A DNA stretch of 64,000 nucleotides, from positions 128,001 through 192,000 of the IMG/VR virus record IMGVR_UViG_3300037067_015211; one strand, given 5' to 3'. Shown here piece after piece: positions 1,738-16,140 of this stretch (its first letter is position 1; each line of letters starts with the position of its first letter). Source of the DNA: a virus. Taxonomy: Duplodnaviria; Caudoviricetes. The position numbers and the translations under genes are program-made. The notes below the pieces were generated by a model. The model made no database searches, was not told the origin of the DNA, and was given only the letters and a program-made list of their open reading frames with translations.

Positions 1738-1763
1738 GACTTTTTCCTTATTCTACTACCTGT

Positions 1764-2156
1764 CTAGTCATTTAAAAATTCTTTTGTACGACCAGTCGCC
1801 ACCCCTTCCAATAATTCCACTACAGTAGAATCTACTTGGGCAACACAATGGGGGTGACAATTCTGATTAATCCACTGAATTAGTGGCTTGGCCGCCAAGA
1901 GCATAGAATCATGTTGTTTTTTTGTTAAACGTGTATCTTCTTGTTTTCCTTTTGTTTGACTCTCTAAATCCGCACAATGAAAACAAATAACGCCCTCTAA
2001 AATATCAATTGAAATAACTTCATGCATTTCCCCAGAATTATCTGGAAGCTGAAACCAAACTTCTTTGTTTGGTAATTTTTGTAAAATTGCTATTACATCT
2101 TCTTTGTCCATGACTTTTCTCCTTATTCTACAATCCAAACCCTTGCAATACATCAA
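1764..2156 (-). CDS. hypothetical protein (likely true start MDKEDV at ~2111)
   Basis: AAGGAG RBS upstream of the internal ATG. Confidence 0.65.
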   Translation of the reverse strand: MMYCKGLDCRIRRKVMDKEDVIAILQKLPNKEVWFQLPDNSGEMHEVISIDILEGVICFHCADLESQTKGKQEDTRLTKKQHDSMLLAAKPLIQWINQNCHPHCVAQVDSTVVELLEGVATGRTKEFLND

Positions 2157-2499
2157 TAAAACCCAACTCTTTTAATCTATCCTTAGATGCATTAATTTCT
2201 GGCTCAATAAGAGGAAAATGATTGTTTGTGGCAAGAATTCTCATTCCCCACAAATCACCCAAATAACCTTGTTCAAATGTTAAAACATCATTATTTTTTG
2301 CAAAATCATTTTCACCCCAATTGCTAAAAACAGCCTGATCTTCATCGCTTACAATAAAATTAATTGGTTTAATGTTTTTGTTCAATAGACAAACATACTT
2401 TTCTGCGATAAAATCTCTAATGCGCTTATTTCTCGTTTCGCCTTTTTCTAGTTCATTTTTTGTTTCTTCTTTTTGAAAAATTTCTTTTAACGTTGTCAT
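2128..2499 (-). CDS. stand-alone major-capsid A-domain-like protein; paralog of both halves of 14644-15513
   Basis: RNKRIRDFIAEK...NFIVSDED...NWGENDF...QGYLGDLWGMRI...EPEINASKDRLKELG aligns by eye with the C-terminal half of 14644-15513. Confidence 0.7.
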   Translation of the reverse strand: MTTLKEIFQKEETKNELEKGETRNKRIRDFIAEKYVCLLNKNIKPINFIVSDEDQAVFSNWGENDFAKNNDVLTFEQGYLGDLWGMRILATNNHFPLIEPEINASKDRLKELGFIDVLQGFGL

Positions 2500-2518
2500 T
2501 TTTTTCTCCTTTTTTATT

Positions 2519-2965
2519 TTATTCTACAATCCAAATACCTTCGGACTTGCAATTTTGTTTGAACGTTTCCTCAAAATGATCCGCAACAGAAAAGAAATCG
2601 CAACTCGTAATCGGCACATAAATAGTCCGAACATCCTCTCCCAATTCAGCGGTCGAATTATGTTTGATGTTTTCACATGTTTCAACAACAAACATTTTGC
2701 CCATAGCAGTAGGCTGGACAATAATAAGCGGGGGTGCCATGCGGATACATCGTACAGAGTCATTGTCCAGCGCGTTACGAACAGACGGAGATGTGGACCA
2801 TCCATAATACTGGAAGCTACGATTACGGATCATAACCACAAAAGCATTCTTGGGCTTTTTAACTATAATCCCGCCCATCTCCTTAAACTGTTCCATGTCA
2901 TTAATCGCAGAAAAGTCAATCTTCTCGTCCTGCTGGTCTTCCACGGCTTTCTTAAACTTAGGCAT
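2519..2965 (-). CDS. hypothetical protein
   Basis: 148 aa, GGAGG RBS, overlaps the upstream stop. Confidence 0.7.
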   Translation of the reverse strand: MPKFKKAVEDQQDEKIDFSAINDMEQFKEMGGIIVKKPKNAFVVMIRNRSFQYYGWSTSPSVRNALDNDSVRCIRMAPPLIIVQPTAMGKMFVVETCENIKHNSTAELGEDVRTIYVPITSCDFFSVADHFEETFKQNCKSEGIWIVE

Positions 2966-3398
2966 TTAATACCTCCTTTAAAATAATTTCCATCAATTGT
3001 TGTTTGTCTTGTCTACCCGAAGATTCCAAAAACTTCTCTATCGCCTCTTTGTCCGATAGTTCAGCTTTTATTTCCTCATTTCTCTTCGGTCTCTCCTGTA
3101 CAACGATAGGCGTTATTTCATTGCAATGATATGACTCCTTAAAACAACTTTTCAAATAATCGAAATCAATTCCATGTAACTGTTCTCCACTTACCTTAAT
3201 GTTGCATTTTACTATTTTATCCTTAAAATTACCGGCTTTCAAGCTTTTATAGGTTTCTTTTGCTTTCTCGGGATCAATAATAAAATTCAAGTCTACAACT
3301 ACAAATTGTTTGTTCTGCACCGACAAATAAGAATAATCTTTAACTTCTTCAGGTGTTGCATTTCGTAGATTAATGTGTGTCGCCGCTTTTTTAAACAT
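2958..3398 (-). CDS. probable SbcD/Mre11 C-terminal (capping) domain encoded as a separate gene
   Basis: Follows the SbcD catalytic ORF; KDKIVKCNIKVS...LSDKEAIEKFLES resembles gp47/SbcD C-termini; own GAGG RBS. Confidence 0.6.
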   Translation of the reverse strand: MFKKAATHINLRNATPEEVKDYSYLSVQNKQFVVVDLNFIIDPEKAKETYKSLKAGNFKDKIVKCNIKVSGEQLHGIDFDYLKSCFKESYHCNEITPIVVQERPKRNEEIKAELSDKEAIEKFLESSGRQDKQQLMEIILKEVLNA

Positions 3399-4128
3399 TT
3401 AAGACCTCTGCATATTCATACAATATTACACCCTTCTTATCATTCACTTCAGAGGCATCCACGTATACAGGAGCACCTACAATCGTCACCTTGCCAATGT
3501 CCTGATGCTTGTGAATATGGCCGCAAAATACTTTGACCACATTTTTATCGTTAATGATCGCCCTTGGCAATGTAAATCCATGATTTGCCAACATGGTATC
3601 TTCCGTACCGGCTACTGCGCCTTCTATTTCAGTGTGGGCAAATACAATGATTTGCTTGTTTTTATCTCGCTCTTGCCATTTTGCCAACGTTACGTCCGCT
3701 GGTTTTTGCCCATCATATTTGGCTTCGCTAATGTGTGGGACAAAAAAGAAATCACATGTTCTTGTGGGTAAAATCCCCGGTTCATCTACTATACAAACAT
3801 ACTCATACAAAATTTCTTGCACCACCGATAAAGTATGATTATGTTCTTCTTCTTCATCTTTTCTGGAAATCTCGTCATGATTCCCAACCAAGAAGAAAGA
3901 CTGTATTTTAGCATCATCTAATGTATTGCAAAGCGTAATAAACTCCTTCACTCTTTTCTGGTGTGTAATCACATTTCTATGATACACGTCTCCGCAATGA
4001 ATGAAGTAGTCCACTTTATTCTGAATGGCAATGTCTACGATATTATTGCATGTGTCAATAATATCGTTACGCTTCAAATTACCGCTAGTTAAATACCAAT
4101 GCCAGTCAGATGTTATTAGAAGTTTCAT
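3391..4128 (-). CDS. sbcD: SbcD/Mre11/gp47-like metallophosphoesterase nuclease (catalytic domain)
   Basis: All five motifs present: SDWH, GDVYH, GNHD, FAH, GHIH. Confidence 0.88.
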   Translation of the reverse strand: MKLLITSDWHWYLTSGNLKRNDIIDTCNNIVDIAIQNKVDYFIHCGDVYHRNVITHQKRVKEFITLCNTLDDAKIQSFFLVGNHDEISRKDEEEEHNHTLSVVQEILYEYVCIVDEPGILPTRTCDFFFVPHISEAKYDGQKPADVTLAKWQERDKNKQIIVFAHTEIEGAVAGTEDTMLANHGFTLPRAIINDKNVVKVFCGHIHKHQDIGKVTIVGAPVYVDASEVNDKKGVILYEYAEVLNV

Positions 4129-4143
4129 TTACTCTTTCTAATA

Positions 4144-4356
4144 TTATTTTTCAGAAAGCGACTCTTCTTTGAATCTACATTCTTCAAGTCTTAAAAAACA
4201 CATATGCCCATTTTTATTGGCATGCCTTTTCAAGTCTCGCCTAAACAATAAACACATATTATGTTGTCCAAGATTAAATTCACTGGGATAAAAAGTACAC
4301 TTTTTATCACACACAAAAAATTCTTCATTTCGATAATTTACCTTTGCCTCATACAT
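4144..4356 (-). CDS. small Cys-containing hypothetical protein
   Basis: 70 aa, overlaps the upstream gene end. Confidence 0.55.
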   Translation of the reverse strand: MYEAKVNYRNEEFFVCDKKCTFYPSEFNLGQHNMCLLFRRDLKRHANKNGHMCFLRLEECRFKEESLSEK

Positions 4357-4621
4357 CTTTTTTCCTTTCCCGATAATTCTTTTCCAAATTCATCCACATT
4401 TTAGCGGAAACATTTGTCAATTGTTCCAATCGTTCCGCAAATTCTTGCGTAATCAATAACTCGCCACTGACAAACTCGTTTAATTGTTTGCCAGATAAAC
4501 CCAAATATTTGCAAATATATTCTTTTAACCAACCGTATTCTTCCCATATTTCATAGAATGTTTCTCCCGGGGCAACTGCATAATCGGGTTTATATTCAAA
4601 CCTCTTTTTCTTCTTCGGCAT
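4349..4621 (-). CDS. HigA-family HTH antitoxin-like regulator
   Basis: YKPDYAVAPGET...LGLSGKQLNEFVSG...ITQEFAERLE...AKMWMNLEKNY, typical HigA pattern. Confidence 0.8.
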   Translation of the reverse strand: MPKKKKRFEYKPDYAVAPGETFYEIWEEYGWLKEYICKYLGLSGKQLNEFVSGELLITQEFAERLEQLTNVSAKMWMNLEKNYRERKKDV

Positions 4622-5840
4622 CCTTAGTCACTTTCGGCATTCTCTTCTTTTCCTTCAGCGTACCACTCTCGTCTTCTACCAAATCAGGAGGCAATTCATC
4701 GGGGCCAATATCCTTGCCATCGTCCTCTTGAGTATAGCAACTATTTGCGGTCGATTTTTCCCAATACTTTTCGATCTCTTCCGCTATCTTCTGCATAGCC
4801 TCTGGATTTTCGTTCAGCCATTTCCTAAGCCGCTTCTCGCCATCCCACTTTTGATCTTCCCCCAACAGCTTACAAAAATGAGCAGAACCAGAATTGGTAA
4901 TGATACCCTGAATCTTTGCCTCTCTTACAATCGTCCTAGCCGCATCGTAACCAGCTTTAGGCTCATCCTCACCACGACCAGTACAAGTATAGAAGTAGGC
5001 AACCTCATTGTCAACACCAATCTTGCTCTTCATCACAATCATTTGGTGCTCTTTGCCTAGCCGCACTTTATTATCATCACCCTGTTTAATATTGCCACTC
5101 CACGTTACTCGAATTCGCAAAGAATTATCAAACTGCAAAGAATTTCCACCAGCCAGTTTCCATTTAGGCTCGTATAGGCTGGCCCCAATATTTACCACTT
5201 CTTGTTGAAGAACAATAAAAGCAACATTATGTTTGCCAATAAATGGTGTTAGCTTGTCCAGCCATTGAGAAATGAGTCTGGCCTGATTGGCCATTCTCTC
5301 TTCTTTAATCTTCATGTCCCTATCAATACCCTTTTCACACTTTTTGCCAATCACAGACTCTTCTGGAATCAGCTTTTTTAGAGTATCGACAATAACACAA
5401 AGCCAATTGTTCTCCTGCCAATCCGCTGGCATTGCCGCATACTTATTAAATACCTTATCGACCTTTATTGCACAATCTTCTAGCGTATCTGGCCGAATTA
5501 CAAACAACTTCTCAATATCTACGCCAAGAGCAACAGGCCAATCCTGCTCCAAAGTGTGCTCGGCATCCACATAGGCAACCATATGGCCTTGTTGCTGAAA
5601 ATCCTTGGCCAGTATAAGGGCCAATGCAGACTTTCCAGCCGCATTAGGCCCATGAATACATGCCATACGACTAAGGGGAAATCCACACAACGGCCCCAAA
5701 GCCCTATTTAGAGAAGGAACAGAAGTTTTAAGCACCTTGAATTTTGGAATATCGTGCAAAAAGTTTGTGCCCTTAATCTCTTTTACACAATTTGCCAAAA
5801 AATCTACCGTACCAGCAATATCGCGCTTTCGCTTGCCCAT
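4596..5840 (-). CDS. recA: RecA/UvsX recombinase
   Basis: GPNAAGKS Walker A, VAYVDAEH, LGVDIEKL, IVDT, QARLISQWL, GGNSLQF. Confidence 0.93.
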   Translation of the reverse strand: MGKRKRDIAGTVDFLANCVKEIKGTNFLHDIPKFKVLKTSVPSLNRALGPLCGFPLSRMACIHGPNAAGKSALALILAKDFQQQGHMVAYVDAEHTLEQDWPVALGVDIEKLFVIRPDTLEDCAIKVDKVFNKYAAMPADWQENNWLCVIVDTLKKLIPEESVIGKKCEKGIDRDMKIKEERMANQARLISQWLDKLTPFIGKHNVAFIVLQQEVVNIGASLYEPKWKLAGGNSLQFDNSLRIRVTWSGNIKQGDDNKVRLGKEHQMIVMKSKIGVDNEVAYFYTCTGRGEDEPKAGYDAARTIVREAKIQGIITNSGSAHFCKLLGEDQKWDGEKRLRKWLNENPEAMQKIAEEIEKYWEKSTANSCYTQEDDGKDIGPDELPPDLVEDESGTLKEKKRMPKVTKDAEEEKEV

Positions 5841-5853
5841 TTATTTGCATCCT

Positions 5854-7440
5854 TTAGAATGGAATATCAGTAATTTCTGCACCACACGAAGAACACTCGG
5901 TGTCCGTAATCCGATTTTCGGCCCCACATTCTGAACATGTTACAATTTCATCATTTTCTTCTTTTTTCGGTGTTGCCTCAGCCTCTTTTTTCTTGCCAAA
6001 AAGCTTCTTTCCCTCTGCCTTGGCTTCTGTCTTAGCCTCTGGCTGTGCCGCTGCCGCTTCTTGCTTGGCTCCACATTCCGGACAAAACTTTGCGCCCTTT
6101 ACGTCTACTCCACACTTAATACACCCAGTTGCCTGAACTTGCTTTTCTACTCTCTTTGCCCCACACTCTGGACAAAACTTTGCCCCGCCCATGTCCTTAC
6201 CACACTGAACACAAGCATCATCGCTAGACCCCTGTACCGCCTGTTCCTTCTCTACGGCCTTCTCGGCGGGTTTCTCGGCAAACTCATCTGTGTCCTCATC
6301 ATAAGATGCACCACTATCCTTGGCATCTGCCTTAGGTCTCTTGGCAACGCCAATGGCAATTCTAAGTTCTTCGTCACCACCATCAAATACCGTTTTATCG
6401 GTAATGGCAAGAGCGTCCCAAATACCCTTGTCTACAAGAGCATCCTTTACCAGCCGATTCAAATATTTTGGCGCAATCGGACGAATAAACTTAATGGTTT
6501 CCAACTCTTCATCAATGGCTTGCAAAGCCGTAGCAGAAGGCTTTTCCTTTACACGACGTTCCACACCGTACTTCTTTTGTGGATTTCGTTCTGCTTCATT
6601 GTACTTCAAAATATAAAGATGTGGATTCTTATCCGGATCTCCTTCTTCTCCCAACTCGACCTTTCCCTTTTCCACCATCTCAAAAATATCACAGCCCAAC
6701 TTGTAAGGAAGCCTTACAAGTTTAAGCTTAGACTCTTCTCGCAAATCCACCACCGGGAAAAGCCATTCGTGTATTTTATACTCTTCTCCAGACGGTTTAC
6801 CAATATTATGCTTGTAGGAATTCTTCTTGTCATCAGGGTCTACCCATGTGCCAAGAATTTGAACCTTGGTATACCGTTGAAACAACTTCTTATCGCCACT
6901 GTAATAAGGCACTTGCAAAACAACTTCATCATCTGCAATTTCAGAAGAAGACGCCAAATATCTGTATAACTGTGTGTAAGCACAATTAGCACCATCAGGC
7001 ACGTTATACGTGTTTGTCAAATCAGTGCTGGGGTGACAAAATGTTTGCACCATTACGAAATCAAATGTGCCGCCGCCCTTTTCTTTCTTCTTCTCACCAA
7101 ATACACGTACTGGAAATTTTACCGTCCAATACTTTTGGATATCCGAATTTCTTCCAAAGTAAACTCGTAATTCACCCTTGGCCTTAAAATCCGTTATCAT
7201 TCTTCCACCAAGATTCGACTTCACATCATCCTGATAACCATCAACTGCTTGTCCAAACTTTCTGCCCATTACATTTTCTCCTTTATTTTGTTTAGTGTAT
7301 TCTACTATCCAATTTTTACTTTTGCAATAGTTAATTACTTTTTTTTCATCCCAACCAATCATATATTTTATGATCGGAGCCGCTATATTACTTTCTAAAT
7401 CTATCCCAGCTACAAAATGATTTGCAGTTATTCTAAGCAT
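5854..7440 (-). CDS. probable phage ssDNA-binding protein with three C-terminal Zn ribbons and an SSB-like DIPF tail; strong internal start at 7269
   Basis: Between RecA and a UvsY-like gene; C-terminus ...EITDIPF; CxxC...CPEC repeats; AAAGGAG RBS before MGRKFG (7269). Confidence 0.65.
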   Translation of the reverse strand: MLRITANHFVAGIDLESNIAAPIIKYMIGWDEKKVINYCKSKNWIVEYTKQNKGENVMGRKFGQAVDGYQDDVKSNLGGRMITDFKAKGELRVYFGRNSDIQKYWTVKFPVRVFGEKKKEKGGGTFDFVMVQTFCHPSTDLTNTYNVPDGANCAYTQLYRYLASSSEIADDEVVLQVPYYSGDKKLFQRYTKVQILGTWVDPDDKKNSYKHNIGKPSGEEYKIHEWLFPVVDLREESKLKLVRLPYKLGCDIFEMVEKGKVELGEEGDPDKNPHLYILKYNEAERNPQKKYGVERRVKEKPSATALQAIDEELETIKFIRPIAPKYLNRLVKDALVDKGIWDALAITDKTVFDGGDEELRIAIGVAKRPKADAKDSGASYDEDTDEFAEKPAEKAVEKEQAVQGSSDDACVQCGKDMGGAKFCPECGAKRVEKQVQATGCIKCGVDVKGAKFCPECGAKQEAAAAQPEAKTEAKAEGKKLFGKKKEAEATPKKEENDEIVTCSECGAENRITDTECSSCGAEITDIPF

Positions 7441-7985
7441 TATTCAAAATTTCTGATTCGCTCTCGCAAATTAAATTCTCTTGCTGTTAAATTCTTCCAC
7501 AATTCCTCAAATAATCCACGATATTCCTTTAGCCGTATTGTCTTGTTTTCTATCTCCCAATACTCCGTACCCTTCTCCGCGCACAACCATTGAGTAAATT
7601 TTTCCTGATATGCACTCCAATTCTTGCTAGGACTCATGTGCGTTATCTCTTCAAACTCTTTGCCCCAATGCCAAAGCCTCTTATTACACTCGAATCTATG
7701 CTTTTCTCGCTCCCGACAAGCCACTATGTATATCTTGTATGCATCCTGTTTGGCCTTGCTAATATAGGACAATTGTGCCATTACTCCATGCTTATCCAAA
7801 TAAGCAAAATCTACTTCTAGCGCGGATTTTAAAGCCTCAAAATCCACTTGTAGCTGAGCCACTTGTAGTTCACGCTCAACCTGCTCATATGTACAGGAAA
7901 GAAACGGCTTATCCTCTACGGTTTCTTTCCTGACAACACTATCCTTTTCTTTTGAATAGTAGTTTGCCGCTTTTTTGAACTGCAT
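7440..7985 (-). CDS. UvsY-like coiled-coil recombination mediator (tentative)
   Basis: Likely start MQFKKAANYY at 7985; helical; adjacent to SSB and RecA. Confidence 0.4.
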   Translation of the reverse strand: MQFKKAANYYSKEKDSVVRKETVEDKPFLSCTYEQVERELQVAQLQVDFEALKSALEVDFAYLDKHGVMAQLSYISKAKQDAYKIYIVACREREKHRFECNKRLWHWGKEFEEITHMSPSKNWSAYQEKFTQWLCAEKGTEYWEIENKTIRLKEYRGLFEELWKNLTAREFNLRERIRNFE

Positions 7986-8871
7986 TACTATTCCTATAAA
8001 TAAAATCGCCCCTAGCCTGACTGTAGGCTTTCTTGTCCTGCCAATCAATATCATCTCTTAAAAACTCGCTTGCCCTTGCCTCAATTTCATCTGCGTAGGA
8101 TACAATATCAGCTTCAAATGTCTTTGGCGTAGTAACCGCACCCCATTCTGGTTTGTGCATATGAGAAGCAATTACGTGCAACAACTCCAAATATTTGTAT
8201 TTCAATTTCATTTGATAGCTACCAATAATCATACACGCAAACAATGGATGCCCAATTAATTTCTCATGTTCATTGTAGTCTATTGTACCATCTTGGCAAT
8301 CGTATGTAAACATTTTTCCGATATCGTGCAATAAAGAACCCACAATAATCAGGTCCATGCTAAATTTATTGCCGTCCATCAAACCAAATTGTTGCGCCAA
8401 CGAAACAGAAAAGGCACAAACTCTAACAGAATGTTCAAACAACCCGCCTAAATATGCACCATGCATAACCTTTGATGCTGGCCAGTTCATGAATTTTTCG
8501 CCATGATCGGCAATAAAAGCAGACATCAAGTCCACATATTTTTTTACAGTAATTTGAGAAACAAAACCATCAAACATTCCTTTGTACATCACCCTCTTTT
8601 CTTCCGGTAATGAAGGAAGAAATAACGATCTGTCTATTTTTTCTTCGACCAACTTATAGTCAAGCACCACGTATGAAGGTCGTCCATTGTAATCGTCTGC
8701 GATTAAATTCACATCAATTATTTGATGATTTTTTACCGACAAGTCTTTTTTGTCCGTATCCCAAAGCTTTGCATTTATTTTCTTGCGCTCTTCGGTAAAT
8801 AGATCGAGCACCACGTATGGTTTACCATTCTTGGTAGTATTCGATAAAATATTATTAATGATTGCCAGCAT
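7939..8871 (-). CDS. YhaM/Cbf1-like OB-fold + HD-domain 3'-5' exonuclease
   Basis: N-terminal OB (TKNGKPY...AKLWD), HGAYLGGLFEHS, LLHDIGK, GH, IASH, PKTFEA..YAD. Confidence 0.88.
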   Translation of the reverse strand: MLAIINNILSNTTKNGKPYVVLDLFTEERKKINAKLWDTDKKDLSVKNHQIIDVNLIADDYNGRPSYVVLDYKLVEEKIDRSLFLPSLPEEKRVMYKGMFDGFVSQITVKKYVDLMSAFIADHGEKFMNWPASKVMHGAYLGGLFEHSVRVCAFSVSLAQQFGLMDGNKFSMDLIIVGSLLHDIGKMFTYDCQDGTIDYNEHEKLIGHPLFACMIIGSYQMKLKYKYLELLHVIASHMHKPEWGAVTTPKTFEADIVSYADEIEARASEFLRDDIDWQDKKAYSQARGDFIYRNSNAVQKSGKLLFKRKG

Positions 8872-8906
8872 GTCGTTCCTCGACTTATGTGTACAATTCT
8901 ACCAAA

Positions 8907-11900
8907 CTATTTTTGCACTTGCAACACTTTTTCGCCTTTATTTTCCCTATTCTTTTTCCAAATATTTGCCCAACCATTATCCTTTATTTCTACCTTGATT
9001 GCAACAATATTCCCGATTACTAAATCTTTTTCGTGTAATTTCATGCTGTCATTCCAAAGGGGAACCCGCATTGATTCTACACCATCGCCTATCGTAAGCC
9101 AAATAAAATCATCGCCTTTGGATGTTTTTGACCTTTTAATTTCCTCTATCTGGGCCAGCACATACCACTTACCGGCCTCGCCTTTTATTGTACTCGGCAA
9201 CTCCCATTGCTTTTCTGCCACAAGATGCATATATTTTTCTATTGGATGCGGTTTAAGACTATACTCGTATAGTTCTGTTTCAATCTGTCTTTTCTTTTCC
9301 TCCGAATAATCTTCTATTTCTTTTTTCTGAATATCCTTTTCAAAGGCATCTACAAATATTGGCAACATGTCAGATGAAACTGGGGCTTTCCCGCCGTCCT
9401 TAAATACTCTTTTAGCATTTGCCCTATTAATATAAAGGGATTCTAATGCCCCCACATCGATTAATGCTTCAATTACATCACTCGATATCCCAACGCCCCT
9501 TCTGTTTGTGCGCAATAAAAAATCACCAAATGATTTGAAAGGCCGTAGCTTTTCAATCGCATAAAAAGCCGTGTTAACGCCCTTCACAAACCCTAGCCCG
9601 AGTCGTATTTTTCCATCTTCTATTGTATGGCCAAAGCCACTTTTGTTTATATCCAGTGGCAAAAATTCTAGGCCCATCCTCTTGGCTTCAATAAAATATT
9701 TTGCATGATTTTTAATCTCGTTCATGCAACAAACTAAAAATTCCACAGGATAATGCACCTTCAGCCACATACAAAAATAGCTAATAATGGAATATGCCGT
9801 AGCATGAGATTTGTTGAAGATATAAAGACCGCAATTTTCTATACTATCCCAAATTTTTTGCACCAAATCGGGAGCAAATCCATTTGCCAACGCACCATTA
9901 ATAAAATCATTTTTCCTTTTAGATAGCACATTTCCCGCGCCAGTCTTTTTTGCAATATCTTTTCTAACTTGATCGGCCTGAGCCATTGTCATACCGGCAA
10001 TTTCACGGCACAATCTCATCACTTGCTCTTGATAAACTAGAATACCATGAGATTCTTTTAAGGTTTCTTCCGTATTAGGCAGACATTTCATATCGCCAGA
10101 GGTATAATTTTTTACAAATCCATCTACGTCTAATCCCGGACGAATAATACTGATTAGTACAGGGATATCTGTAAATGTTTCTAGCTTCCCTATTTTTTTC
10201 AGGATAGATGTAGTGTTGTGGTTTTCCATCTGAAATACGCCGATTGTATTGCCCTTGCCAAACTCTTCAAATATTTGCTCATCGGCCTCCATATCCAGCT
10301 TGTACAAATCAGTGTATTGTTTTCCAATCATATTGCATGTTTGAATAATGGCCGGTAAATTAGAAAGGCCCAGCACGTCTAGCTTTAAATACCCCATTTT
10401 TTCCAGCCAAGTTCCTTCATATGATGTAATGATTTCATTGGAAACTTTTGCTATGGGCACCGCATCCTTGTCGGGCAAAATAGCTATACCAGAAGCGTGG
10501 GTAGAGTTGCCTCGTATTTTACCACAAATAACCATTGCATAATCGTATGCTTTTTTGAATGTGGAGTCGTTATGATATTTTTTCTTTACCTCTTCGTTTT
10601 CATTTAACTCTTCTTGCAAAGAATCTGTAGAAAAAGACTTGGTAATATTCTGTTCCGACATGGGCAGACCGAAAAACCTAAATGAATCCTTTAGGGCCAT
10701 CCTTGCCGCACACTGAAGAAATGTACCAATTTTGACTACCTTATCGCCATATTTACTGGCCAACAACTCACAGGCTTTTGTTCTATCGGAATAGTCAATA
10801 TCGATATCGGGCAATGATACTCTATCTGGGTTGATAAACCGCTCGAAATAAAGCCCGTATTTAATGGGATCTACCCTTGTGATATCCAAACAATATGATA
10901 CTAAACACCCTACTGCTGACCCTCTGCCCGGCCCCGTCTCTACGCCATTCTCGTGCATATGTTTTACGACATCGGCAACGAGAAGAATATACTCTACAAA
11001 TCCATTTTTTTCGATAACCGACACTTCATTTTTTAGCCTATCTAAATACTGTGCAGATTTATTTTTGTCAATAAAACCATCTGCAATAAGTCTTCTGAAG
11101 CCCTGCATAGTACGACTTTTAAATTCATGCACCGTATCAGAATATTCCATTTGGAACATCTTCAGCTTTTTGTCAAAATCAAAGTTTTCCACCTTCTCGG
11201 CTATCTGGCTAGTGCTTGCAAATAATTTGTCGAGCGTCTTGGCGTCTACCTCGTAACCGTAAATTTTGCTATCTGCTCTAATTTGTCTTTCACCCTTTAC
11301 CCAAAGTTCTTTGCCGCCGTCCCCCATTGTCTCGCCAGTTTGCCGTAAAGCCTCTTCTGCTTTTTCCAAAGTCTTATATTTTCTCAAAGCATAGGTATAG
11401 GCGTAGGTATTAAAATCTTCCTTTGTCCTATAATGAATATCGTTCGTAACGACTGGTTCTATGCCCAACTTTTCTGCCAGCACAAGAAGGGCACGATTTA
11501 TTTTCTTTTGTCTTGGGATTTCGTTAAACTGCAATTCTAAATAGAAGTCGTCTCGAAAGATATTCTTAAACTTCATTGTCTCGGCCAATGCCAAATCAAT
11601 TTTGTCCTCACCTATTAATCTAGGGATATACCCTTGTACACAGGCCGAAAGGCAAATTAGTCCTTCAGAATACTCGGCAAGTTTTTCAAAGGTGACACGA
11701 GGGACATAATAAAAGTTTTCTCTGACCGCCCAGTTATTTAGCTTTACTAGATTCCGATACCCCTGCAAATTTTTGCACAATAGAACAAGGTGGTAGTTAT
11801 CTTTAACCTTATCTCCGCCTACGGTGAAATAAGTTTCTATCCCAAGGATAGGCTTTACGCCATTTTCTTTTGCCTTGGCATGAAATAGTGGTAGGCCGCT

Positions 11901-12032
11901 CATTGAGCCATGATCGGTCAATGCCATAGCGGTAGATTTAGCCAACATACAAGCTTCGATGTATGTTTCTGGCGGCATTAACCCATCAAAAAAGCTATAG
12001 ATTGAATGGGCATGTAATGGGGAAAACATCAC
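8907..12032 (-). CDS. dnaE: DNA polymerase III alpha subunit
   Basis: PHP motifs (LHAHSIYSFFDG, TDHG, HLVLL, NDIHY), GPGRGSAVG, PDIDIDY, THASG, KLDVLGL, FNKSHA, C-terminal OB; no intein. Confidence 0.97.
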   Translation of the reverse strand: MMFSPLHAHSIYSFFDGLMPPETYIEACMLAKSTAMALTDHGSMSGLPLFHAKAKENGVKPILGIETYFTVGGDKVKDNYHLVLLCKNLQGYRNLVKLNNWAVRENFYYVPRVTFEKLAEYSEGLICLSACVQGYIPRLIGEDKIDLALAETMKFKNIFRDDFYLELQFNEIPRQKKINRALLVLAEKLGIEPVVTNDIHYRTKEDFNTYAYTYALRKYKTLEKAEEALRQTGETMGDGGKELWVKGERQIRADSKIYGYEVDAKTLDKLFASTSQIAEKVENFDFDKKLKMFQMEYSDTVHEFKSRTMQGFRRLIADGFIDKNKSAQYLDRLKNEVSVIEKNGFVEYILLVADVVKHMHENGVETGPGRGSAVGCLVSYCLDITRVDPIKYGLYFERFINPDRVSLPDIDIDYSDRTKACELLASKYGDKVVKIGTFLQCAARMALKDSFRFFGLPMSEQNITKSFSTDSLQEELNENEEVKKKYHNDSTFKKAYDYAMVICGKIRGNSTHASGIAILPDKDAVPIAKVSNEIITSYEGTWLEKMGYLKLDVLGLSNLPAIIQTCNMIGKQYTDLYKLDMEADEQIFEEFGKGNTIGVFQMENHNTTSILKKIGKLETFTDIPVLISIIRPGLDVDGFVKNYTSGDMKCLPNTEETLKESHGILVYQEQVMRLCREIAGMTMAQADQVRKDIAKKTGAGNVLSKRKNDFINGALANGFAPDLVQKIWDSIENCGLYIFNKSHATAYSIISYFCMWLKVHYPVEFLVCCMNEIKNHAKYFIEAKRMGLEFLPLDINKSGFGHTIEDGKIRLGLGFVKGVNTAFYAIEKLRPFKSFGDFLLRTNRRGVGISSDVIEALIDVGALESLYINRANAKRVFKDGGKAPVSSDMLPIFVDAFEKDIQKKEIEDYSEEKKRQIETELYEYSLKPHPIEKYMHLVAEKQWELPSTIKGEAGKWYVLAQIEEIKRSKTSKGDDFIWLTIGDGVESMRVPLWNDSMKLHEKDLVIGNIVAIKVEIKDNGWANIWKKNRENKGEKVLQVQK

Positions 12033-12039
12033 TCTCCAG

Positions 12040-13143
12040 CTAGGTCAAACAAACACACACATTAAAACATTTTTCATCTTCCGACATAAACAAAATCTTT
12101 GTTCTGTCTTTTTTCACAAAAAATCTAACACTCTCTTCAGCCTTGTAGTTTCCCACAAGATAACTCAAATGATTTGCCACTACACCAATTTCTATTTCCT
12201 GTACATCGGACACGATGGAACAATCAACCAGTTCCACCACATCGCAGTTTGATTCCGCATTCGTAATTTCCATTTCAGTCGGAGTAATCTTGATTTTAAT
12301 CTTCGCCTTTCCCTCTCCGTCCTTTACTACCTCCAGCCTCGACAGCGCATCCAGTAGAACGTCAGGGGCCACACTTACTTCAATTGTGTTTGTCAATTCC
12401 TTATTAAACTTTACCGCATTTTCTAAATCAATGTATTTCTCGTATTGTGCGGCCAAGCGTATAGCACGTAGCACGAAGTTCCCATAATACACGTAAATGA
12501 ACTTCTCGTCAAGCCCAATCTTGTATGGCTTGACCTTATATTTCTTGATGAATTCAAATAATTGCTTATGAATAGTCAGTTCATCAAAAAATTTGTCATC
12601 CTTGGCGTCAAACTTATATTCAGAGATGATGTAAGTATTTGATGCGTATCCCTTACCGTTTTGCACTCGTATTCCAAGCAAAGATGGTTTGGATGCTTCA
12701 AACACACTTGACGCTCTGGCTCCGTCCAAAAAGTTCAGGCCCGTTATGAAGTCCTCGGGCACCAAACAAAATTGTTCTGGTTCTTTGTATGTCAGGATTG
12801 CCGTTGCTTCGTGCAATGAAAAGCGACTCCGTGTTTTTTCACATACAATTGTAAGGTTGTTCTCATTTAGGGCAAGCTTCATCTTCTCCGCGACCTTCAG
12901 CTTTTTTACCAAAGATGCAAGAAGTTTGCCGTCGATGGAGAAGTTTCTATCGAACAAATTATTTTGGAACGAGAAAATCGCACTAAACGAATCGTCCCCT
13001 GCGATTACTTTATTTTTGTCAAAAAATCGTAAACACTTGTACTCTTCCACATTCGTTCTGGATGGAATGAAAGAAGATAGAACTTCAATCATATTTGTAA
13101 ATTCAGACACAAACACTTCTTTTTCATTTATTTGCTTGAACAT
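12040..13143 (-). CDS. dnaN: DNA polymerase III beta sliding clamp
   Basis: 367 aa, adjacent to dnaE, three-domain clamp pattern (KPSLLGI..., ASNTY, LLDALSRL). Confidence 0.75.
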   Translation of the reverse strand: MFKQINEKEVFVSEFTNMIEVLSSFIPSRTNVEEYKCLRFFDKNKVIAGDDSFSAIFSFQNNLFDRNFSIDGKLLASLVKKLKVAEKMKLALNENNLTIVCEKTRSRFSLHEATAILTYKEPEQFCLVPEDFITGLNFLDGARASSVFEASKPSLLGIRVQNGKGYASNTYIISEYKFDAKDDKFFDELTIHKQLFEFIKKYKVKPYKIGLDEKFIYVYYGNFVLRAIRLAAQYEKYIDLENAVKFNKELTNTIEVSVAPDVLLDALSRLEVVKDGEGKAKIKIKITPTEMEITNAESNCDVVELVDCSIVSDVQEIEIGVVANHLSYLVGNYKAEESVRFFVKKDRTKILFMSEDEKCFNVCVCLT

Positions 13144-13146
13144 GTT

Positions 13147-13551
13147 TTACACTTCCATAATCTTTTCGTCGTTATAAGTGCCGCTTTCATAAACACCATT
13201 TGTTGCATCTTCAAACTCAACTGTAATCGAAAAAGAAATCCCAGTCATAAAATTATTGATCCTAGTATAGAGCGTATTTGCCAACCTCTCGGGGGTGGGG
13301 TTGCCCATAATGGGCATGGCCACGCTCTTATCGGGCGGATTTTGATCCTTTGCATTATGAAGTGTTTTGCCATCCCAACCTCGAATGACGGGCGTTACCC
13401 TCTGCCAAACGTCCTCTTGGACAATTACATCGTTATGGGCCGGTGATGCCGCCTTGGCCGTAACAGAAATTACTGCAATACGAGAAACACCATCTTCATT
13501 GATCTTCTTCGTCTTGCAACTAACGCGAAACCTCTTTGTGCTCAGGTACAT
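13147..13551 (-). CDS. QueD/PTPS-like T-fold protein lacking catalytic His residues
   Basis: MYLSTKRF..., WDGKTL (for LDHxxL), NPTPERLA (for NPTxExLA), terminal VEFED strand. Confidence 0.55.
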   Translation of the reverse strand: MYLSTKRFRVSCKTKKINEDGVSRIAVISVTAKAASPAHNDVIVQEDVWQRVTPVIRGWDGKTLHNAKDQNPPDKSVAMPIMGNPTPERLANTLYTRINNFMTGISFSITVEFEDATNGVYESGTYNDEKIMEV

Positions 13552-13901
13552 TTTAACAACCTCCTAGTTAATTGATTTTTTAAAATAAGATCGACAACCA
13601 CCTTCTTTTTACCGGCCAATGTCCTATCTCTTCGAACAACATCATTTACCAGCCTAAACGTCACACCGTCAACTTCAAATAAATTTGGTGGCGTATCCTT
13701 CAGCGGGGGAATCGCCATTATCATATGATCCTTTACGGATATATAGTACAATAGCGATTCCCAAAACCTAAGCCAGCCATTATTCTCGAACTCACCCATA
13801 ATGGCCCTACAAATATTCAGCCGTCGTTCATCCTTGGAGTTTTCGAGCAGTCCATTGAACGAACGAATAAACCGCCAAACCAGTTTGTTACTTTTCGACA
13901 T
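13542..13901 (-). CDS. hypothetical protein
   Basis: 119 aa, overlaps both neighbours. Confidence 0.6.
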   Translation of the reverse strand: MSKSNKLVWRFIRSFNGLLENSKDERRLNICRAIMGEFENNGWLRFWESLLYYISVKDHMIMAIPPLKDTPPNLFEVDGVTFRLVNDVVRRDRTLAGKKKVVVDLILKNQLTRRLLKCT

Positions 13902-14622
13902 TCAAAAGACTCTTCAGTTGTGCAACCGTAAGCGTGATTGACATATCGTCCGTCAAAACATCCGACAGCCACAATGATTTTCCAGTTTTAACTTCTTCTT
14001 TATCCTCTTTTACCGCCTTTTCCTGCACAACTACTTTTGTGTCATTGGCAAGAACTTGCTTTGCTACATCCTCAGACACTCCAATTGGAGCAGATGATTT
14101 TACTTCCTTAGCAACAGGCTTTTCTGCCGCAAGTTCAGGGATGTCCTTTTGCTTTTCCTTCGCCAATTCCGCCGCCAACCTCTTCTGATCCTCAATGATC
14201 TGTTCCTTTGTGCGCCTTTTACGTCGTTTTTTGGGTTCTTCGGGCTTAGGCGCATCATCCAAATCACCCATAACCTCCATCTGTTCCTTCTGTACTTCTT
14301 CCACAGTAGGTTCTTTCACAGGCTCAGGCTTTTTGTTCATGTTGTTGCCACAAAACACACAAACTATTACTTCTTCCGCCTTGTTTTCTTTCTCTTCTTC
14401 CGGCTCTGGGGAAGGCATTTCTTCAAGACAATGCGGACATTGCACTATGTTGTAAACCTTCGGATCGTAATACGTAAGAGCATCGTGCAATAAAGATGCA
14501 ATATGTTTGTCGTCCATTTCTTCCGGCTTGACAATAATCGCACCCTTTGCCTTTACAAAATCCTCGTCTCCATTAAGATAATCAATTGCCGCCCTCATCT
14601 TTTCTCGGTCATACGTTGCCAT
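13888..14622 (-). CDS. Zn-ribbon protein with a basic KRRKRRTK motif
   Basis: CPHC...CVFC; charged low-complexity C-terminus; AAGGAG RBS. Confidence 0.7.
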   Translation of the reverse strand: MATYDREKMRAAIDYLNGDEDFVKAKGAIIVKPEEMDDKHIASLLHDALTYYDPKVYNIVQCPHCLEEMPSPEPEEEKENKAEEVIVCVFCGNNMNKKPEPVKEPTVEEVQKEQMEVMGDLDDAPKPEEPKKRRKRRTKEQIIEDQKRLAAELAKEKQKDIPELAAEKPVAKEVKSSAPIGVSEDVAKQVLANDTKVVVQEKAVKEDKEEVKTGKSLWLSDVLTDDMSITLTVAQLKSLLNVEK

Positions 14623-14643
14623 AGTTCTTTTCTCCTTCTAAAA

Positions 14644-15513
14644 TTATTTTATACCCAACTGCTGAAGTCGTTCATCTGAAACATTAATTTCCGGCTCTGT
14701 AACCGCGTCATTACTGTAAACCTTCATGCCCCATAGCTCTCCCAAAAACCCTTGATTGTAATATTTTTCTTCGTTGCGGCCAAAATCACCTTCATCCCAA
14801 TTGTCAAACACAATACGGTCACTATCATTTACCACAAAATTATTCGGGGATATGTTTTTATCAATCACTTTAGTAACTTTTTCACAAATATATTCTCTAA
14901 CTCTTGTGTTACGAATTTTATCTTCTTGTTCTTTGGTTAAGCTATATTTTGAAATATATTTGTCAACATCTTCTTTGGAAACCTTAACCCTTTCATATTG
15001 TTCATGAATATCCTTCATTGGCGTTAAAAGCTTTTTATCTTCATCAAGCCTAACGCCCTTCATTCTTTGAGAAAATTCATTGTCACACTGCTCGGCCACC
15101 TCATCTGATGGGTCATCATTATCTATGAAACAACCAAAGCCAAGTTGTTTCATTCTTTCATCCGATGGATTTATTTCCATTTCTTTCATAAGTCTAGTTG
15201 GGACTTGAAAAACTCGTATATCACCAAACAATTTGCCCATATACCCACATCTGATTTGAGATGTTTTTAGGCATCTTTTAAAGTTTGTTAAACCAAAAAC
15301 AGTAAGAAGGTAAGAATAGTCTAACGATGGAATAAAAAGCCTAGTAGCCCTTTCCCCTGTTTTTTGAAAATATTCTTCAAGTTTACCAGAAAGATATTCA
15401 AGAACTTTTGTATCTTTTATATTTGCTGTTTCCCCCTCTAAAAGTGATCTAACATACCCAAACTTTTCTGCATCATTAATTTTTTTGTTGTATAAATCAG
15501 CTAAAATACCCAT
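14644..15513 (-). CDS. tandem two-domain protein of the capsid A-domain-like family (paralog of 2128-2499)
   Basis: Two repeats ending GYMGKLFGDIRV...EMEINPSDERMKQLG and GFLGELWGMKV...EPEINVSDERLQQLG; start MGILADL after the AAGGAG RBS. Confidence 0.7.
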   Translation of the reverse strand: MGILADLYNKKINDAEKFGYVRSLLEGETANIKDTKVLEYLSGKLEEYFQKTGERATRLFIPSLDYSYLLTVFGLTNFKRCLKTSQIRCGYMGKLFGDIRVFQVPTRLMKEMEINPSDERMKQLGFGCFIDNDDPSDEVAEQCDNEFSQRMKGVRLDEDKKLLTPMKDIHEQYERVKVSKEDVDKYISKYSLTKEQEDKIRNTRVREYICEKVTKVIDKNISPNNFVVNDSDRIVFDNWDEGDFGRNEEKYYNQGFLGELWGMKVYSNDAVTEPEINVSDERLQQLGIK

Positions 15514-15537
15514 CTCTTTTCTCCTTCTGTTAATTTT
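15510..15537. repeat. 28-bp exact direct repeat copy 1 (5' leader with RBS and start codon)
   Basis: ccatctcttttctccttctgttaatttt, identical at 16081-16108. Confidence 0.9.
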
Positions 15538-16084
15538 GTGCAAACAACACTTCTTCTAAAACATTATCAACCAACTCGGCCAACAATTTTTCTTTTTGCA
15601 AAACAATAGAATATGGATAAACATAGGACAATTTTATCGCCAAATCAATCTGTTGTTTTGATGAGGCCGTTTTACAATGAAAAGGATCGCCCTTAACGAT
15701 AGTGCCCGTTAAGAAATCTTCCAATGTCCTTATAGCAAGACCCCAATTTGACGTTCTCTCTTCCTCTTCTTTTTCTTGGCCCAAAATAATTAGAGCCAAT
15801 TTATTTTTTGTTTCTCTACTAACCTCATCGGATAAAAAAATATTTTTAATTAACTTGTTAATCAATTCCGATATTATTTTAAATTTACTTAGTGTGCTCG
15901 GCGGGTAATTTTCACAAAGATATTTTACCAAATCAAAACTTGAGTCGTTCCCAGCAGACAATGTTTTTTCCAACACAGCCAATGTTTTTGTGGCAACTGG
16001 CCCATCTGCGCTTATTTTATCAAACGCAAGCCTATTGAAAAAATTTAACACAACAATCATTCCATCTGAATTATTGTTATCCAT
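15530..16084 (-). CDS. hypothetical protein (start MDNNNSDG)
   Basis: AAGGAG RBS inside the duplicated leader. Confidence 0.7.
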   Translation of the reverse strand: MDNNNSDGMIVVLNFFNRLAFDKISADGPVATKTLAVLEKTLSAGNDSSFDLVKYLCENYPPSTLSKFKIISELINKLIKNIFLSDEVSRETKNKLALIILGQEKEEEERTSNWGLAIRTLEDFLTGTIVKGDPFHCKTASSKQQIDLAIKLSYVYPYSIVLQKEKLLAELVDNVLEEVLFAQN

Positions 16085-16108
16085 CTCTTTTCTCCTTCTG
16101 TTAATTTT
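16081..16108. repeat. 28-bp exact direct repeat copy 2
   Basis: Identical to 15510-15537. Confidence 0.9.
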
Positions 16109-16112
16109 ACCC

Positions 16113-16140
16113 ATCATACCACATCTAATTAAACTTGCAA
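16113..16140 (-). promoter_or_regulatory. sigma70-type promoter
   Basis: TTGCAA-16 nt-TATGAT with TGn extension, just after the primase stop. Confidence 0.55.

Follow-up and report, generated by a model that had tools for sequence, protein, structure and literature searches.

Two genes in the replication operon of an uncultured phage encode small proteins whose three modules, judged by sequence comparison, are homologues of the A-domain segment of the phage's own HK97-fold major capsid protein (MCP). The genes lie in a stretch of 64,000 nucleotides (hereafter the window), which corresponds to bases 128001-192000 of the 212,568-bp IMG/VR record IMGVR_UViG_3300037067_015211 (genome completeness estimate, 95%). 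The single-module gene encodes P0001, a protein of 123 amino acids (aa), and the two-module gene encodes P0003, of 289 aa, as compared to 294 aa for the phage's own MCP, P0005. The modules have no recognizable counterpart of the N-arm, the E-loop, the spine helix or the P-domain strands. Since the N-arm, the E-loop and the P-domain are missing, the modules would be incapable of building a shell, and the incomplete fold marks the two proteins as capsid derivatives rather than capsid proteins. As a new observation, the same MCP slice also stands alone in other giant phages of the phage-G type, in copies of their own.

The two genes and their homology to the capsid A-domain

The genes and their parts, in window coordinates, are as follows.

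2128..2499 (-): single-module gene, encoding P0001 (123 aa), with the ribosome-binding site AAAGGAGAAAAAAATG
2197..2421 (-): single-module core, P0001 residues 27-101; its homologous part in the phage's own MCP is residues 164-244 (BLASTP E 2e-12, 33% identity; own-lineage capsid profile E 2e-8)
2161..2205 (-): family-specific tail, E-P-E-I-N-x-S-x-x-R-L-x-x-L-G, the most conserved stretch of the family, with an ambiguous MCP counterpart
14644..15513 (-): two-module gene, encoding P0003 (289 aa), with orthologues in two metagenomic relatives (80% and 92% identical) and a ratio of nonsynonymous to synonymous substitutions (dN/dS) of 0.09-0.23
15124..15438 (-): N-terminal module of P0003, the more diverged copy, which retains the Q-[IV]-P-T-R stretch and the two-residue insertion of the MCP
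14932..15123 (-): acidic inter-module linker of P0003, the end of which, KEDVDKY, may correspond to the invariant ED closing the capsid spine helix (hhalign 58%)
14647..14931 (-): C-terminal module of P0003, 34% identical to MCP residues 164-224

The two genes share a domain of about 90 aa, each module being about 90-105 aa long. In BLASTP comparisons, P0001 matched the C-terminal module of the 299-aa frame of the two-module gene with 46% identity over 91 aa (E 2e-28), and the N-terminal module with 31% identity over 68 aa (E 7e-7). This sharing is far beyond chance. P0003 starts at an ATG behind a strong ribosome-binding site (AGAAGGAGAAAAGAG), and its frame remains open to a TTG at 15543. 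A preliminary description of this DNA, made from the letters alone, had proposed three copies of a ~90-aa domain in these two genes, with the N-terminal copy of the pair being more diverged. Both open reading frames (ORFs) proved to be as described, and the 31% versus 46% identity to P0001 agrees with the greater divergence of the N-terminal copy. The consensus that it quoted is also present, including G..G.L.G and the tail E-[PM]-E-I-N-x-S-x-x-R-[LM]-x-x-L-G. Across the 8 known modules, 15 positions are invariant, among them G..G.L.G and the tail positions E-x-E-I-N-x-S-x-x-R-x-x-x-L-G.

P0005 is a phage-G gp27-type HK97-fold MCP. Its gene (genome 197512-198396, minus strand) starts 5.5 kb past the end of the window and comes after a portal gene and a head-protease gene, in the portal-protease-capsid order. 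The protein matched gp27, the MCP of phage G (PDB 6wkk; E 1e-22), as well as phrog_2522 'major head protein' (E 5e-26) and NCBIfam NF042927 'HK97-fold major capsid protein' (E 5e-22; 78.2 bits, slightly below the curated cut-off of 80). An AlphaFold model of P0005 on 66 homologues, with a predicted local distance difference test score (pLDDT) of 78 and a predicted template-modelling score (pTM) of 0.79, aligned over 210-239 residues with HK97-fold shell proteins, including HK97 gp5 and encapsulins (Z 15-18). A 1162-aa ORF located upstream of the capsid gene (genome 198982-202470, minus strand; L094:6982-10470:-) matches head-maturation proteases only at residues 68-212, and its long remainder is perhaps a fused scaffold.

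Both module proteins matched P0005 directly. In BLASTP, P0001 aligned with MCP residues 164-244 (E 2e-12, 33% identity over 81 aa), while the C-terminal and N-terminal modules of P0003 gave E 5e-11 and 5e-4, respectively. The profile of the 8 known modules matched the profile of 66 capsid proteins with an hhalign probability of 87% (E 4e-6), and the 66-member capsid profile in turn matched the stand-alone proteins (E 2e-5 and 1e-4). When searched against the 1362 ORFs of the whole 212,568-bp genome, the module profile matched exactly four places, namely the three modules and one MCP stretch (E 1e-10); all else lay at E > 0.5, with the next match at 0.5. Outside its own family, the same profile had a single genuine match among 1.84 billion representative proteins, to residues 157-228 of the capsid protein of a near relative; an EGF-like repeat that also scored was spurious. 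The modules and P0005 also have in common the G-x-x-G-x-L-W-G motif and a P-E ahead of a P-domain strand. The preliminary description had noted a resemblance to a large-phage capsid family and had proposed an alignment to the phage's own MCP outside the window. The alignment (E 2e-12 to 5e-4, with the profile match above) bore this out, and the string that it quoted, IVMN....DI..WG..., turned out to be phage G gp27 sequence.

In the P0005 model, the matched stretch is composed of a helix (164-175), a strand (181-187), two helices (190-196 and 204-213) and two strands (222-227 and 236-241). It comes after the spine helix (112-139) and before two long P-domain strands. The match between the model and HK97 gp5 is collinear (39-294 to gp5 129-382), and the offset places the stretch at gp5 ~253-330. 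This falls within the gp5 A-domain (residues 242-331). Of the 290 positions of the capsid profiles, only about 156-237 had a match in the stand-alone proteins; as only A-domain positions were matched, the earlier statement that these genes lack the P-domain and the E-loop and cannot build a shell stands. On the other hand, the structural match to the HK97 A-domain that had been anticipated held only in part: sequence homology supports it and no unrelated fold emerged, but an independent fold match was not obtained, the AlphaFold model of stand-alone P0001 (8-row alignment of stand-alone modules) having a pLDDT of 43. The fold of the free module is predicted by homology. The only match of the module profile in the PDB was a chance myosin stretch, and Pfam, PHROGs and NCBIfam scans of P0001 and P0003 gave nothing meaningful. 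After the conserved P-E, the MCP counterpart of the tail is ambiguous, because MAFFT, BLAST and hhalign give three different placements of the tail against the MCP sequence past residue 244.

Origin, selection and recurrence of the A-domain slice

The module profile scored 34-39 bits on the 4 capsid proteins of the phage's own lineage, 23 bits on the next closest one (37% identical to P0005) and at most 17 bits on 61 others, with a constant register. In the reverse test, a profile of the own-lineage capsid proteins gave E 2e-11 and 2e-8, as compared to ~0.01 for a profile of 62 others. The modules and the own-lineage capsid proteins share DFGR, IDRN/IDKN and a two-residue insertion with Q-x-P-T-R, the insertion being kept by the N-terminal module. 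A maximum-likelihood tree also joined the modules with the own-lineage capsid proteins (SH-aLRT 97). Two results limit the weight of this placement. The approximately unbiased (AU) test did not reject a tree with the modules outside the clade formed by the capsid proteins of the own lineage and of the nearest relative, L014 (p 0.46), and the own-lineage grouping dissolves once the fragments of other phages, which form long branches, join the tree. Since the tree evidence is soft, the argument for the origin rests on the profile scores and the shared lineage-specific residues. The tree of all fragments was discarded as evidence of origin, as its long branches attract one another and nothing was resolved. 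An origin of the two accessory genes by partial duplication of a capsid gene of the phage's own type is well supported, and our conclusion is that a capsid gene of the own lineage gave rise to the modules, which diverged fast and then settled.

The module family is restricted to one phage lineage, that of the present phage. When 5.8 billion proteins were searched by words, P0001, P0003 and one orthologue were the sole matches, and neither protein had a counterpart in 50,697 phage records by tblastn or megablast. IMG/VR was also scanned using the module profile, the capsid protein and Pol III alpha, and no close relative emerged. Overall, no family members were found elsewhere in the 5.8 billion proteins, the 1.84 billion representatives and the IMG/VR and JGI metagenome scans.

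Orthologues of the two-module gene are present on three short metagenome contigs. L005 and L006 carry an identical 288-aa protein, 80% identical to P0003, and L010 carries a second orthologue, 92% identical. The dN/dS of the gene was 0.17 against the L005/L006 orthologue, 0.09 against that of L010 and 0.23 between the two orthologues (dS 0.4-0.6), similar to the values of 0.11-0.18 for the neighbouring genes, and the two modules of P0003 are both constrained (0.14 each). The two-module gene is under purifying selection. An orthologue of P0001 was not recovered among the metagenomic relatives. These data bear on the possibility that both genes are functionless, decaying leftovers of a partial capsid-gene duplication, as might be expected from a family limited to one lineage with very few sequences known. 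We consider this highly improbable, given that the frames are intact and have good ribosome-binding sites, that the dN/dS equals that of the neighbours at a dS of 0.4-0.6, that 15 positions remain invariant across paralogues only 25-48% identical, and that the two-module gene keeps its place in three relatives.

To survey other phages, the full capsid profile was run against 21 large IMG/VR contigs of the phage-G capsid type. Several of them gave further partial matches at the same capsid profile positions (about 150-240), whereas phage G, Tunturi_5, LR745208 and the closest large contig, G001, have the capsid gene only, with no extra slices. The 235-kb phage G016 encodes a 302-aa protein (L110:4876-5781:+) with two tandem A-domain slices (E 8e-17 and 1e-19), the second of which is up to 60% identical to mainstream capsid proteins. 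A 175-aa stand-alone slice protein was found in G005, proteins of 100 and 159 aa in G015, and an orthologous slice protein of 280/296 aa in G014 and G013. Slices of the N-arm are present in G016, G011 and G015. A survey across phages had been proposed in the preliminary description, and it placed the module family in one lineage only and the same slice, standing alone, in other giants of the phage-G type.

The fragments of the other phages reach 60% identity to mainstream capsid proteins. The profile of the module family gives them no more than 13 bits, and they lack the tail of that family. Next to them lie genes of varied kinds, among them an actin-like gene, a lectin-like gene, and a helicase gene accompanied by a sigma-like one. 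These features fit separate origins from capsid genes of their own type, outside the module family described here, a history that the tree cannot confirm. The excision of the A-domain slice is therefore recurrent in giant phages, once more as a tandem pair. Given that each copy is nearer to ordinary capsid proteins than to the module family, this recurrence suggests that the slice itself is what selection wants.

Two of these loci have further features. In the 381-kb phage G005, the stand-alone A-domain gene is immediately preceded by an actin-like 'Volactin' gene (L111:3195-4235:+; PF25216, E 4e-70). The 436-kb phage G015 has a cluster of small ORFs in two regions (L112 and L113; 421000-430000 and 263000-274000), each ORF with a different capsid slice: N-arm positions 2-60, A-domain positions 164-236 and P-strand positions 223-256. 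Most of these ORFs end in a common Cys-rich tag, ...C..C.V.xVMES, which is missing from the 100-aa A-domain ORF.

The surroundings of the two module genes contain the following elements.

16113..16140 (-): sigma-70-type promoter with an extended -10, TTGCAA-16-TGgTATGAT, located in L005 immediately in front of the two-module gene
15507..15537: 31-nt repeat, with a second copy at 16078-16108, flanking the 184-aa ORFan cassette
15530-16084 (-): 184-aa ORFan cassette between the promoter and the two-module gene, the 31-nt repeats of which include the ribosome-binding site and the first codons
2123..2139: 17-nt perfect direct repeat, with a second copy at 2519-2535, flanking the single-module gene and forming part of a recurring junction of stop codon and ribosome-binding site

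Promoter and terminator scans gave no excess over shuffled sequence (promoters within ~2 standard deviations, terminators at the mean), and the one good extended -10 promoter was retained. In L005, the two-module gene directly follows the primase gene and this sigma-70-type extended -10 promoter, and the 184-aa ORFan cassette is absent. At the same site, L010 has an additional gene with a module, which is 74-79% identical to the C-terminal module of P0003. Thus, the module copy number differs between near relatives, and the site just behind the primase gene is an insertion hot-spot. The extra copy in L010 and the hot-spot with its flanking repeats are traits of conflict genes. Three consecutive genes end in one junction, GTAGAATAA followed by GGAGAAA (window 1741-1756, 2116-2139 and 2519-2535), which may act as microhomology for cassette exchange.

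Two further genes in the window, on the minus strand, encode zinc-ribbon-like or ribbon-bearing proteins. Directly downstream of the two-module gene, a 244-aa acidic, lysine-rich protein with a CxxC...CxxC ribbon (13888-14622) has 84% identity in L010 and no family match. Between the genes for RecA and the HD protein, a 528-aa protein (5854-7440) shows no recognizable feature before its last 120 residues, which hold several zinc-ribbon motifs.

Possible roles of the module proteins

The two A-domain helices are the main subunit contacts in the pentameric facet (Andreas and Giessen 2021, PMC8346489), and the A-domain face that forms pentons and hexons is the binding site of the sensors Avs7, Avs8 and Avs10 (bioRxiv 10.64898/2026.01.04.697583). 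Moreover, DSAD1 occupies the pocket of DSR2 that reads the tail-tube protein, and keeps the sensor off (PMC10973363). From the homology, truncation, selection, position and recurrence described above, we infer a mechanism whose every step is conditional. A module that keeps only the A-domain stretch (a helix, a strand, two helices and two strands) would display the capsomer-forming face. As a soluble, non-assembling protein showing this face, it would be a molecular mimic of the MCP, which might occupy host factors recognizing the MCP, before or during production of the real one. Occupation without activation would have its precedent in DSAD1 bound in the tail-tube pocket of DSR2, and the two-module protein would offer two such faces per chain. 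Our first choice, which we favour only tentatively, is that the module proteins are antagonists of, or decoys for, host factors that read the A-domain face. More generally, mimicry of the MCP by a protein that cannot assemble is the most likely role, whether it opposes an immune sensor or modulates assembly. The stand-alone copies in other phages, the cassette-like variation, the binding of the A-domain by Avs proteins and the precedent of DSAD1 add plausibility to this reading, as well as to those of an assembly poison and a scaffold.

Several points weigh against a decoy. Early expression of the module genes is suggested only by their position and the sigma-70-type promoter. A faithful mimic of an activating ligand could trigger the sensor instead of blocking it, and the modules are only about 33% identical to the MCP. 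The best-conserved part of the modules is the family-specific tail, without a clear MCP counterpart, which hints at a new partner. In addition, an intact capsomer-forming face is assumed, considering the pLDDT of 43 for the P0001 model.

The retained helices could also serve another end, since they correspond, by mapping onto the P0005 model, to those making the subunit contacts in pentamers and hexamers (PMC8346489). A module could bind the MCP via the native intra-capsomer interface, either as an assembly modulator that caps monomers and delays or steers the phage's own head assembly, or as an inter-phage weapon that poisons a co-infecting relative, or a satellite that steals capsids, at the step of capsomer closure. 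Two modules per chain could imitate two adjacent subunits, and the same slice stands alone in several phages. However, the genes lie in the replication operon, 54-67 kb from the head module, a protein that binds the phage's own MCP could poison the phage itself, the interface may have been lost in part at 33% identity, and a head-loading leader tag is absent from both P0001 and P0003. We therefore regard a role of this kind as rather unlikely, albeit a serious competitor.

The genomic setting of the two genes raises a further possibility. Their neighbours in the replication operon encode RecA, an HD protein, Pol III alpha, the sliding clamp and the DnaG primase, and the distance of 54-67 kb from the capsid gene agrees with the preliminary description, which had placed them among replication genes and far from the morphogenesis genes. 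A small, self-associating A-domain might have been exapted as a scaffold or chaperone that organizes or stabilizes a replication protein, with the tail as a new binding peptide and with no capsid mimicry. The location between primase, sliding clamp and Pol III alpha is in keeping with this, as are the tail, which is invariant in 8/8 known modules and absent from the capsid protein, and the complexes of Family 4 A-domain proteins with GAPDH (PMC8346489). Nevertheless, the same-slice fragments of other phages occur in varied, non-replication contexts and lack the tail, which points to a property of the slice itself, and a scan for clamp-binding-like motifs gave nothing specific. A scaffold or chaperone role seems unlikely. 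The Q-L-G-F tail, considered as a candidate clamp-binding motif, was rejected on the same scan. The remaining probability belongs to an explanation that nobody has thought of yet.

The decoy reading can be put more broadly: giant phages would have excised the A-domain from their own capsid gene on repeated occasions, and the N-arm as well in certain genomes, and would keep the slices as selected, swappable, non-structural genes that antagonize capsid-sensing immunity (Avs7, Avs8, Avs10 and CapRel-type). We find this generalization possible but doubtful. Among the signals that trigger bacterial immune sensors, capsid proteins are one of the main ones, and structures show several of these sensors gripping the A-domain face whose region these genes preserve. 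If the reading is true, a phage-made, non-assembling copy of this face would give the phage a simple means of countering such immunity, or of attacking its competitors. It would also represent a counter-defence class built from self-derived virion-protein fragments, of which no description was found in the searchable literature. The small proteins, paired with their cognate capsid proteins, form a concrete testable set.

Comparison with known systems

In the available literature, we found no account of a tailed phage with stand-alone copies of the A-domain of its own capsid protein. The nearest relation of the modules is the phage's own MCP of the gp27 type, with which they are homologous over residues ~164-244 and share DFGR, IDRN/IDKN and Q-x-P-T-R. 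As compared to this MCP, they are ~33% identical, are sited in the replication operon and carry a new conserved tail; the MCP gene lies in the head-morphogenesis block of portal, protease and capsid genes, whereas the module genes do not. T4 gp24, the vertex protein, is a full-length capsid paralogue that also arose by duplication of the phage's own capsid gene. It has the whole fold and is built into the shell, while the modules retain about a quarter of the capsid fold.

The Family 4 'A-domain encapsulins' (PF08967 DUF1884; PDB 2PK8; PMC8346489) are free-standing, A-domain-only proteins of ~100 aa, and the modules are candidates for the same make-up, since their sequence maps onto the A-domain elements of the MCP model. 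Family 4 proteins consist of two helices around a small sheet, and their role is possibly oligomeric (PMC8346489). However, they are cellular proteins with enzymes as partners and occur in hyperthermophilic archaea and in two genera of Bacteroidetes, whereas the modules are phage genes recognizably derived from that phage's capsid gene and occur in both single- and two-module forms. Family 4 genes occur in thermophile genomes, paired in an operon of two genes with hydrogenase, OsmC, GAPDH or DeoC; the module genes instead lie beside primase, clamp, Pol III alpha and ORFans. Because of this different setting and the lack of a PF08967 match for P0001 or P0003 (Pfam scan, E <= 1), the modules are not Family 4 encapsulins.

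DSAD1 of phage SPbeta, the inhibitor of DSR2 (PMC10973363), is comparable as a working model only, being a small phage protein that sits in a defence pocket sensing a virion protein. It mimics the tail-tube protein in binding only and is no copy of it, and its activity has been demonstrated, whereas the modules are candidate mimics known here from sequence. The finding is a kind of truncated HK97 A-domain protein or mimic-type accessory gene. Independently of function, it provides a sequence-level case of an A-domain-only protein arising from a full capsid gene, a route previously proposed for the Family 4 encapsulins from structure alone.

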